From Blastocatellia bacterium (GTDB lineage: Bacteria; Acidobacteriota; Blastocatellia; RBC074), in assembly GCA_033763135.1 (NCBI GenBank), contig JANRKY010000148.1, positions 2,277 to 66,276 of the forward strand: 64,000 nt of DNA, read 5' to 3'. Under the pieces are notes generated by a model, which worked only from the letters and a program-made list of their open reading frames with translations, did no database searches and had not been told where the DNA came from. Both the position numbers and the translations under genes were made by a program. Below are positions 60,670 to 63,480 of the stretch, piece after piece; the first letter of the stretch is position 1; every line of letters begins with the position of its first letter.

Positions 60670-63480
60670 ATGTGCGGAATTATTGGCTATGTTGGAGAAC
60701 AGGCTGTCGTGCCGGTCCTCATCGAAGGACTCCGACGGTTGGAATATCGCGGGTACGATTCCGCCGGCATCGCCGTCGTGAAAGATAACGCGATCCAGGT
60801 GCGCAGACGCCCCGGCAAACTGCAGGCCCTGGTCAAACTGCTCGAAACGGAACCGCTCGACGGCGAAGTGGGGCTCGGCCATTGCCTGACGCCGGACACG
60901 CTGATTCAGCTGGCCGACGGCACGGTCGCACCGATCGGTCGCCTGGAAGGCGACGTCACCGTCTTGTCCCTCGACCCGGAGTCCCTGCGGCTCCTCCCGC
61001 GCACTGCACACGTCTTTCGCCATCGCGCGCCGGAAAAGCTGATTGAAATCCGCACCGCTGGCGCCAGCATCACCTGCACGGCGCATCATCGAATGATGGT
61101 GATGAATGCGGATACGGGAAAAGTCGAGGAGAAGTTTGCCGGCGATCTGCAAGCCGGCGATCTGTTGATTCGCGCCAAAACCATACCGGCGCCCCTCGTA
61201 ACGAAGGAGCATGTTCTTCACTCCCTCCTTCCAAATCCGGCGAGAAGGACTGACTTCGCGCTTGAGGTTTCCTTACCACAACCCGCGAAGCGGGTGGCAG
61301 AGTATAGCCTGGGGTGGAGGCGAAGCCGGAACCCCAGGATCGCCCGTACCGAGTTTCGAGCCCGTGAAACGGGCGGCAGCCAACACGAAGGCATCCAGGT
61401 CAAAGAGAACCACAATCTCTTCACAGTTCCTTCTTCAAATGCGCATCTGGCGATGGCAGAGACTGCGCATCTGATGCCCTCTCAGCAAAAGAAGGTTCAT
61501 CTATGTGATATCGAGTTGTTCATTCCCATCCGCCAAGCAATCCTGCAGCGCCGTCTGCAGGATTGCGGACTCGCCGCGGACGTGTTTCGCCCGTTTCGGG
61601 GCGAAGGCTATCTGACAGAAGCACAGGCCCATCTCCTGATCGAGACGCTGCAGGCGTATCCGCAGGCCCGGGAAGTCATGGAACAGCTTCAGGGGTTCCT
61701 GCATGGCGATGTGGTTTTTCAGGAGGTTCAGCGTGTGGTTACGGTGGATGCGCCGGATGCGTGGGTCTACGACCTGGAGGTACCTGGGCCCGAAAATTTT
61801 ATTGCGAACGGCCTGATCAGCCATAATAGCCGCTGGGCCACGCACGGAAGGCCCTCGGAGGAGAATGCCCATCCGCATCGATCGAGTTCCGGCCGCATCT
61901 GCGTCGTCCACAATGGAATCATCGAAAACTATCTCGAACTGAAACGGGAACTGCAGAAGCAGGATCACCGATTTCAGTCGGAGACGGACACCGAGGTCGT
62001 CGCGCACCTGATCGAACAGCAGATGCGAGAGGATGCAAGTCTCGATTTTGCGGGTGCGTTCAGCGCCATGCTGAAAAAGATTCGGGGAATCTACGCGCTC
62101 GTGGCAATGTCCGCGGACGAGCCGGACAAACTCCTGACGGCACGGCTCGGCCCCCCTCTGGTAATTGGCATCGGGGAGGATCAGCATTTCGTGGCGTCCG
62201 ATATTCCCGCGATCCTCCCCCACACCCGGGATATGTTTTTCCTCGGCGACGGTGAATGGGCGATCATCACCCGGGACAAGGTGCAGGTTTTTGACGCGGC
62301 CGGCGCCAGCGTCAAACCGGAGATGCAACACGTCACCTGGGACCCGGTGCAGGCGGAGAAGGGCGGCTTCAAGCATTTCATGTTGAAGGAGATTTACGAG
62401 CAGCCACGGGCGGTGCGGGACACGACGCAGAATCGGGTATCGCTCGATACCGGGCGGGTCTTTCTGGAAGAGATGGACATCAGCGAAGACGATCTGCGGC
62501 GGATGACGGACATCAAGATCGCCTCGTGCGGAACGGCGTGGCATGCGTCGCTGGTGGCCAAATATCTGATTGAGGAACTGGCGCGGGTGCCCGTCGAGGT
62601 CGATTACGCCTCGGAGTTCCGGTATCGCCATCCGATCCTCACGCCGACGACGCTGATGATGGTCATCTCGCAATCGGGAGAGACGGCCGACACGCTGGCG
62701 GCGCTGCGGGAGGCGAAGGGCAAGGGCTGCAAATCGCTGGCGATCTGCAATGTGCAGGGGGCGATGATGACGCGCGAGGCCGATGGAACGATCTACACGC
62801 ACGCCGGCCCGGAGATCGGCGTGGCCTCGACCAAGGCCTTCACCTCGCAGATCGTCGCGGCCTATCTCTTCGCGCTCTATCTGGCGCAGATTCGCGGGAC
62901 GCTGAGCGAAGAGAAATTGAAATGGCACGTCCGGCATCTCTCCGAGCTGCCGGTCAAGATCGAGAAGCTGCTCAACAACGCCGAGGCCGATTACGAGGAG
63001 TTGTCGAAGGCCTTTGTGCTCTCGACCGATTTTCTCTATCTCGGCCGGGGGATCAATTTCCCGATCGCGCTCGAAGGGGCGCTCAAGCTGAAGGAGATCT
63101 CGTATATCCACGCGGAGGGCTATGCCGCGGGCGAGATGAAGCACGGGCCGAACGCGCTGATCGATTCTCGACTGCCGGTGGTGGTGATCAATACGCTCGA
63201 CCCGGACGACGACAAGTCGCGTCTGCGGTACGAGAAGACGATCTCCAACATCCAGGAGGTGCGCGCCCGCGACGGCATCGTCGTCGCGATCGTCACCGAG
63301 GGAGACAAGGACACGGCCGACATGGCCAGCTTCACGATCGAGGTGCCGCCGTCGAGCGAACTGCTCTCGCCGATTCTCTCGGCCGTGCCGCTGCAACTGC
63401 TCGCCTATCACATCGCCGTCCGCCGCGGCTGCGATGTCGATCAGCCGCGCAACCTGGCCAAGTCGGTCACGGTGGAATAG
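60670..63480 (+). CDS. glmS: glutamine--fructose-6-phosphate aminotransferase, intein-containing
   Basis: N-terminal MCGIIGYVG (Cys2 Ntn amidotransferase) and C-terminal SIS domains ending ..KSVTVE. The 936-aa length reflects a 315-aa insertion between GLGH and SRWATHG. Confidence 0.9.
60883..61827 (+). other. intein within glmS (Hint N: [13 protein letters not shown]..; Hint C: ..[21 protein letters not shown], followed by extein Ser)
   Basis: The insertion starts with Cys. It ends with HN directly before a Ser that replaces the Thr of the conserved GHTRWATHG extein motif. It contains block A (CL.PDT.I....G), block B (TAHH) and block F/G-like (VYDLEV.., NG.ISHN) sequences. Confidence 0.8.

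Follow-up and report, generated by a model that had tools for sequence, protein, structure and literature searches.

A GlmS intein of a Blastocatellia bacterium in which the homing-endonuclease block appears to have been replaced by unrelated, partly repeat-derived DNA

What takes the place of a homing endonuclease when an intein loses it inside an essential gene? The question is raised by glmS of a Blastocatellia bacterium (Acidobacteriota; lineage RBC074), which we analyzed in a window of 64,000 nucleotides (nt), namely, positions 2,277 to 66,276 of the forward strand of contig JANRKY010000148.1 (assembly GCA_033763135.1). A first-pass annotation, made from the DNA letters alone, had proposed that the 936-amino-acid (aa) GlmS encoded here is interrupted by a 315-aa intein without recognizable homing-endonuclease motifs. 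The insert is, at the sequence level, a class 1 intein; relative to its closest relative (locus L002, the uninterrupted 508-aa intein of the Blastocatellia metagenome-assembled genome CTOTU46662), its helix-turn-helix (HTH) and endonuclease block appears to have been exchanged for unrelated filler DNA, the core of which matches a hairpin-rich repeat on a soil metagenome contig (L049). The features of the locus, with identities and ratios of nonsynonymous to synonymous substitution rates (dN/dS) given relative to L002, are as follows.

60670 to 63480 (+): glmS precursor, from the list of open reading frames (ORFs); 936 aa including the intein, stop codon at 63478–63480.
60670 to 60882 (+): N-extein, 71 aa, ending in ...GLGH; 96% aa identity, dN/dS of 0.023.
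60883 to 61827 (+): intein, 315 aa; Pfam Intein_splicing match, matches to inteins in the PDB, and a same-site family in 19 genomes.
60883 to 61209 (+): Hint-N (intein aa 1–109); 82% aa and 80% nt identity, dN/dS of 0.125, predicted local distance difference test (pLDDT) score of 79–89.
61210 to 61539 (+): orphan filler, 110 in-frame codons without a stop, at the position of the relatives' HTH_3 and double-LAGLIDADG block; delimited by collinear blastn matches to L002.
61239 to 61384 (+): repeat-like core of the filler, with three hairpins and the match to L049.
61540 to 61695 (+): helical region (intein aa 220–271); 82% aa identity, dN/dS of 0.06, four predicted helices with pLDDT of 63–80.
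61696 to 61827 (+): Hint-C (intein aa 272–315); matches to PDB inteins over residues 266–315, 82% aa identity, dN/dS of 0.11.
61828 to 63477 (+): C-extein, 550 aa, beginning with Ser+1 in SRWATHG; 96% aa identity (218 residues available), dN/dS of 0.023.

The boundaries of the intein agree with the ORF, with the codon reading, and with Pfam: residues 10 to 315 match PF14890 (Intein_splicing) at an E value of 4.4e-21 (75.7 bits, versus a cut-off of 35.8), in an alignment made up of two Hint halves with one long insertion between them, and both halves match solved inteins in the PDB (CDC21, TFIIB, RadA, DnaB, and PI-PkoII). All of the motifs read in the first-pass annotation (the initial Cys, the TAHH of block B, blocks F and G, and the terminal NGLISHN directly before a Ser) are present. 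The block A nucleophile, Cys1 (TGC, 60883–60885), is invariant across the family; block B, with the pattern T-x-x-H, is T66-A-H-H69 (61078–61089, with Thr66 at 61078–61080 and His69 at 61087–61089), both named residues being invariant or nearly so among same-site inteins; block F contributes Asp297 (61771–61773, within VYD297LEV); and block G closes the intein with His314-Asn315 (CAT-AAT, 61822–61827, within NGLISH314N315), followed by the AGC codon of Ser+1 (61828–61830). The precursor as a whole contains GATase_6/7 and two SIS domains, split by the Intein_splicing match. Splicing in silico yields a 621-aa GlmS that matches the Escherichia coli enzyme (4amv) at an E value of 1e-70, and the rejoined GLGH/SRWATHG aligns with GIAH/TRWATHG of E. 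coli without a gap. This alignment with an intein-less GlmS confirms the precise extein junctions and places the intein site directly before the Arg-Trp of the glutaminase loop.

By all of its defining sequence features, then, the insert in GlmS is a class 1 intein (Cys1 ... His-Asn/Ser+1) of the Hint fold. It differs from a LAGLIDADG intein such as L002 in having neither two LAGLIDADG motifs nor a LAGLIDADG_3 domain between the Hint halves, and from a mini-intein (Hint only, ~130–200 aa) in its length of 315 aa, which includes a filler of ~110 aa and a 52-aa helical region as extras. The 64-kb window contains neither another glmS nor another Hint domain.

What, then, lies in the middle of the intein? 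Pfam detects no LAGLIDADG, HNH, or other family there, even at E ≤ 1, and together with the family profile described below this bears out the absence of a homing-endonuclease motif noted at first pass. The same annotation described roughly 170 residues between the Hint halves without a LAGLIDADG or convincing HNH motif. The interval (~160 residues) is not uniform: residues 220–271 form a conserved helical region, and only residues from about 110 to 219 are orphan.

The comparison with L002 defines what has changed. L002, whose Pfam content comprises Intein_splicing, LAGLIDADG_3 (in two stretches), and HTH_3, is collinear with the window over ~5 kb (~82% nt identity overall), specifically at 56881–61209 (81%) and 61540–62482 (83%). 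Within the intein, nt 1–327 correspond to nt 1–327 of L002 (80% identity) and nt 658–944 to nt 1237–1523 (78%), and the helical region and Hint-C combined are 74% identical in aa sequence. Between these collinear blocks, the window has 330 nt (61210–61539), where L002 has a 909-nt stretch that encodes HTH_3 and both LAGLIDADG motifs. The left breakpoint (61209/61210) is sharp; the right edge is fuzzy, with similarity to L002 returning from about 61522.

The filler shows no similarity to the block whose position it occupies. With 7-nt words, blastn finds no similarity between it and the middle of L002, and a profile of the endonuclease regions of 14 family members scores negative bits against all six of its frames (best E value, 0.25). 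Collinear protein chain alignments are at the level of shuffled sequences (z = 1.6 and 11/200 shuffles for L002; about 0 for the other 13 members), as is the DNA of each filler sub-segment when compared with the endonuclease region of L002. A frameshifted or degenerate LAGLIDADG remnant is unsupported in each of these three tests (profile, chain, and sub-segment DNA). The HTH_3 and LAGLIDADG block thus appears to have been replaced by unrelated DNA, rather than detectably degenerated. The first-pass suggestion that the middle may be a degenerate endonuclease or a different domain finds no support as worded: neither is detectable, and 330 unrelated nt with a hairpin repeat at their core stand where 909 nt would be expected.

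That core has a relative elsewhere. It contains three hairpins: hairpin 1 (61281–61295; ACCCGC-GAA-GCGGGT, then GGCAG), the variable hairpin 2 (61308–61338), and hairpin 3 (61360–61374; GCCCGT-GAA-ACGGGC, then GGCAG). An exact search of metagenome contigs with the 31-nt hairpin CCTGGGGTGGAGGCGAAGCCGGAACCCCAGG returned a single match, at the far end of L049 (Ga0126369_10119440), a 2.4-kb soil metagenome contig whose remainder is unrelated to the window; the identity extends over 33 nt (61306–61338). A second unit on L049 adjoins the first in the opposite orientation (tail to tail) and is intergenic, downstream of an ORF. This second unit does not contain the 33-mer, and as an nhmmer query it has only one match in the window, at 61239–61384 (E = 3e-7). 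The consensus unit consists of hairpin 1 (ACCCGC-GAA-GCGGGT plus GRCAG), the variable hairpin 2, and hairpin 3 (GCCCGY-GRA-RCGGGC plus GRCAG[CC]), and the pairing of hairpins 2 and 3 is preserved through two-sided compensatory changes (alignments A2 and A3). Both copies of the motif CCCGYGRARCGGGYGRCAG that the window contains lie in the filler, versus 0.1 occurrences expected. The Smith-Waterman score of the filler against L049 (90) is only modestly above the maximum for tiles of real window sequence (81), so that the nhmmer E value and the 33-nt exact match are what carry the claim of a repeat. On this evidence, at least ~145 nt, and possibly ~180 nt, of the filler appear to come from a hairpin-rich repeat family, which may be mobile. 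The contig end truncates one of the L049 copies. The filler is not flanked by terminal inverted repeats, and searches of viral contigs with the hairpin patterns gave no match. The GC content of L049 (0.54 for the whole contig, versus 0.62 for the window) is near that of the filler (0.55); on this basis, either the repeat may occur in more than one kind of organism or the filler may be foreign. We found no report of a repeat element, or of a miniature inverted-repeat transposable element (MITE), inside an intein in the searchable literature, an incomplete library.

Could the 110 residues instead be a new functional module kept by selection, such as a binding peptide or a sensor that makes GlmS maturation conditional? 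Their 110 codons are open in the glmS frame, for which we estimate a chance of ~2% in random sequence of such composition, and other inteins are documented to splice conditionally (discussed in PMC4760082). An essential host gene would, however, enforce an open frame anyway, and the searches yield no homologue: the central 171 aa have no hit among 1.84 billion representative proteins, a concatenated six-frame query of the filler has none at E ≤ 10 among 5.8 billion proteins, and back-translated filler patterns retrieve no relative from JGI metagenomes. Nor does the filler match plasmids or phages, or have a copy elsewhere in the window (blastn and nhmmer). Its composition is unlike that of long-resident coding sequence, with a GC content at third codon positions in the glmS frame of 0.59, versus 0.75–0.84 in Hint-N, the C-extein, and glmU, and its core is homologous to intergenic DNA. 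The AlphaFold model assigns residues 96–213 a pLDDT of 21–40, versus 79–89 for Hint-N and 63–80 for the helical region, such that structure prediction bears out an ordered helical part of the intein's center and leaves the filler without a confident fold. The encoded peptide is basic (isoelectric point of about 10) and hydrophilic, and we regard it as probably an unstructured linker between the Hint halves, with the disorder predicted from the model. A selected module is very improbable. The first-pass idea that cell-wall precursor synthesis is made conditional on splicing likewise remains speculation: nothing at this locus indicates conditional or regulatory splicing.

A role for the filler at the RNA level or in another frame also fails to emerge. 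Its predicted RNA fold is not compelling (z = -1.85), and within 60000–64000 at E ≤ 1, Rfam yields for the filler only a weak chance match to CssrA (22.9 bits, versus a gathering score of 93) and no glmS ribozyme upstream of glmS. ARAGORN finds no tRNA or tmRNA-like gene. An ATG-initiated ORF of 87 aa in an alternative frame (61211–61474, +) begins one base past the left breakpoint; Pfam gives no match for it, and the six-frame search no homologue.

Does the intein still splice? Measured against L002, the exteins have a dN/dS of 0.023; the values of the retained intein parts are 0.125 (Hint-N), 0.06 (helical region), and 0.11 (Hint-C). When L003, L004, and L007 serve as outgroups, the window branch has no excess of substitutions over the branch with an intact endonuclease (8 versus 11, 3 versus 3, and 2 versus 1). 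The catalytic residues are all present and agree with the family consensus. Purifying selection acts on the parts that remain (the Hint halves and the helical region), and splicing is therefore probably intact, with mobility probably lost. The opposing possibility is that the intein no longer splices and that this glmS is a pseudogene or a non-catalytic paralogue, with another copy supplying GlmS. Artificial deletion of the endonuclease domain impairs the splicing of some inteins (PMC8966425), and our view takes in 64 kb of the genome. Against this stand the intact catalytic residues, the low dN/dS of exteins and Hint halves alike, the lack of a substitution excess on the window branch, and a glmU–glmS synteny like that of relatives, in which the order glmU, small membrane protein, glmS is conserved; we judge a non-splicing intein to be quite improbable.

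An assembly artefact, in which the 330-nt filler results from a chimeric join at a repeat, might also produce such a locus. L049 ends within the repeat, as assemblies often do; neither the 936-aa GlmS nor a neighboring 183-aa product has an identical record in the searched assemblies; and the searches never returned the window's GlmS. Yet both flanks belong to the same gene in the same frame, the 110 codons between them are free of stops, and a mis-join would need to exit and re-enter the intein precisely, all of which makes an artefact scarcely credible.

The reading that we favor, and consider reasonably probable, is that of a vertically inherited same-site intein that has lost its HTH and endonuclease, has acquired an unrelated, partly repeat-derived filler, and has retained splicing. 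Several observations weigh against it. The AlphaFold model renders Hint-C poorly, because only N-terminal fragments were supplied as the alignment. About 150 nt of the filler (61210–61238 and 61385–61521) are of no known origin. The repeat is known from three copies (one here and two on L049), with no further copy in the 64-kb window or in 48 other loci, and neither terminal inverted repeats nor a target-site duplication nor a transposase was detected with it. Synonymous divergence (dS) between the window and L002 is 0.8–1.6, near saturation, and a neutrally drifting endonuclease remnant could therefore evade detection. Finally, two 9-mers, GCTTGAGGT (61260–61268) and ATAGCCTGG (61304–61312), exactly match the endonuclease DNA of L002 in the same reading frame; in L002 they lie 2 nt apart in the conserved LEVNSLEM codons, versus 35 nt apart in the window, where they bracket hairpin 1. 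They could be rearrangement microhomology, a tiny remnant, or chance.

These last two points also speak for an alternative in which the middle is a heavily degenerated HTH and LAGLIDADG remnant with several internal deletions and the L049 match is a secondary insertion or a coincidence. The homing-cycle model predicts that degeneration precedes loss (PMC8966425), and at the observed dS neutral DNA would be near undetectable. MAFFT, moreover, places weak collinear matches, one (H.L....AR..DF) under the HTH helix and another under GQISIRMTDLEL, and the chain score against L002 is marginal. However, the family endonuclease profile is negative in all six frames, the chains against the other 13 members and the sub-segment DNA against L002 are at shuffle level, and drift leaves both the E = 3e-7 match and the 33-nt exact stretch to a non-coding repeat unexplained. 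We consider such a remnant unlikely.

Under replacement with retained splicing, the history of the locus might be reconstructed as follows. The ancestral family intein would have carried HTH_3 and a double-LAGLIDADG homing endonuclease, of which ~300 codons were lost in the window lineage; their place would have been taken by ~104–110 in-frame codons of unrelated DNA, partly a repeat resembling either repetitive extragenic palindromic (REP) sequences or MITEs. Because glmS is essential, only a frame-preserving replacement could survive. The filler would be translated and then leave the protein along with the intein. Class 1 splicing proceeds through an N-S acyl shift at Cys1, trans-esterification to Ser+1, Asn cyclization, and an O-N shift. 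Here, the Hint halves would associate, Cys1 would undergo the acyl shift, Ser+1 the trans-esterification, and Asn315 the cyclization, and the product would be a 621-aa GlmS with a native-like GH-SRWATHG loop. Having no endonuclease, the element would be unable to home, and it would persist only because precise deletions seldom occur and imprecise ones are lethal.

How unusual is an intein at this site? A word-indexed protein search with the intein alone recovered one fragment, on metagenome contig L001, and a query combining the N-extein with Hint-N recovered further fragments (from Blastocatellia, Elusimicrobiota, and others). We then scanned one genome per GTDB species for the block A pattern CLxP[DE]T[LF][IV]QL, calling a locus same-site if it had G-x-x-H upstream and [SC]RW[AS][TS][HT]G downstream. 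Of the 47 loci obtained, 19 are in glmS at the identical site, 12 of them in bacteria (four Acidobacteriota, three of which are labelled Blastocatellia; two Chloroflexota; and six Patescibacteria or unclassified) and seven in archaea (Micrarchaeota, Methanobacteriota, Nitrosopumilales, and one unclassified). Nineteen of ~185,000 species representatives is a lower bound, because the scan retrieved only that block A pattern. An intein at the GH/(T/S)RWATHG site of a bacterial GlmS is accordingly rare, as supposed at first pass, but not singular. The Methanocaldococcus jannaschii intein listed in InBase as "Mja GF-6P" may belong to the same family, if it occupies this exact site. The searchable (and incomplete) literature yielded no description of a bacterial GlmS intein and nothing relevant on GF-6P, and GlmS goes unmentioned in the main text of an intein survey (PMC4760082).

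The family is conserved in its architecture and variable in its middle. Full-length members measure 488–513 aa and are ordered Hint-N, linker, HTH_3, two LAGLIDADG motifs, helical region, and Hint-C, and the C-terminal junction residue, where present, is Ser in 17 of 18 loci and Cys in the other. In an alignment of the 19 inteins, the helical region is retained in most members, including the mini-intein L006; L019 (440 aa) is an exception, having kept its endonuclease with the helical region missing. Shortened members have arisen independently: L006 (247 aa; 4001–4741) and L011 (158 aa; 3110–3583) are clean deletions, and L020 (231 aa; 4001–4693) contains unalignable filler, ~75 aa of which align to nothing in the family, such that non-homologous filler after endonuclease loss may recur. 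The penultimate His is absent from two same-site inteins, L003 (at about 5500–5530) and L019, which end in ...AVMN/SRWSSHG and ...VSSN/SRWSTHG. On L001, glmS (6001–9394) has an insert of ~510 aa at the same site with LAGLIDADG_3, spread over three called genes through frameshifts; coverage of this contig is only 1.6x, and the frameshifts may be sequencing errors instead of decay.

Most of the other loci from the block A scan are also inteins, similar in block A and located in different host proteins. In L022 to L048, inteins that begin with the signature CLxPDTL[IV]QL interrupt other proteins of DPANN and Bathyarchaeia archaea, with upstream contexts of ...GGHI[VL]AH, ...SHAH[LM]DH, and ...K.[KR].GG[QM]. 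That several hosts have a block A signature in common suggests that one intein lineage has moved between insertion sites.

Set beside known systems, the window intein combines familiar parts. It shares with the L002-type GlmS inteins the identical insertion point (G-x-x-H / C...HN / S-RWATHG) and the block A signature, and differs in having an unrelated 110-aa filler where these relatives have HTH_3 and two LAGLIDADG motifs. As in natural mini-inteins (PMC8966425), the endonuclease is lost, the Hint halves are kept under selection, and the element is predicted to be immobile, a state consistent with the stages of degeneration and deletion in the homing cycle described there. It is nonetheless not a clean deletion: the unrelated filler and the retained 52-aa helical region bring it to 315 aa, roughly double the length of a minimal Hint domain. 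The repeat resembles REP sequences and bacterial interspersed mosaic elements in its short, G+C-rich imperfect palindromes and conserved GRCAG tail, and in that its L049 copies form a cluster of alternating orientation behind a gene. No other copy exists in the 64 kb or the 48 loci, no REP-associated tyrosine transposase was seen, and, unlike those elements, the copy in the window is intragenic. The Rickettsia palindromic elements and other intragenic MITEs that are translated in frame (review PMC10969869, which cites Ogata et al. 2000) are similar in being short palindromic, hairpin-rich repeats within an ORF that stays open and is translated. Only three copies are known here, and no terminal inverted repeats or target-site duplication are defined; unlike in those elements, the host ORF is an intein, whereby the peptide would be removed from the mature enzyme.

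Two observations concern the surroundings of the gene. Directly past the glmS stop codon, 63503–63586 form a G+C-rich hairpin, long and perfect, with a T-run after it, probably a terminator, which yielded spurious sub-threshold Rfam matches to miRNAs and sRNAs on both strands. Between glmU and glmS, 60113–60664 (+) encode a small protein with an N-terminal zinc-ribbon-like CxxC...CxxC motif and hydrophobic segments; at the corresponding place, L001 and L002 show nucleotide similarity to at least part of it.

Overall, the locus represents a largely ordinary stage of intein decay with an unusual filler in an essential gene, and neither a new biochemical mechanism nor a new kind of system. The intein of the GlmS glutaminase loop emerges as a recurrent allele in Acidobacteriota, Chloroflexota, Patescibacteria, and several archaeal lineages, and the window, together with the intact L002 at ~82% nt identity, documents the states before and after endonuclease loss, dated and with sharp breakpoints. 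Loss through a foreign, partly repeat-derived replacement, as opposed to simple deletion, would show that the middle of an intein tolerates arbitrary sequence, and a naturally endonuclease-free intein whose junction has Ser+1 and whose 110-aa linker is tolerant might serve as a scaffold for engineered insertions or split-intein design. More tentatively, and with the balance somewhat against it, a mobile hairpin repeat may have colonized the dispensable middle of the intein, perhaps through a rearrangement that itself deleted the endonuclease, giving three nested selfish layers: a repeat within an intein within glmS. If so, the intein would be a safe harbor, since splicing removes any peptide that the insertion encodes, and, if this is general, decaying inteins could act as landing pads through which foreign DNA enters essential genes without cost.

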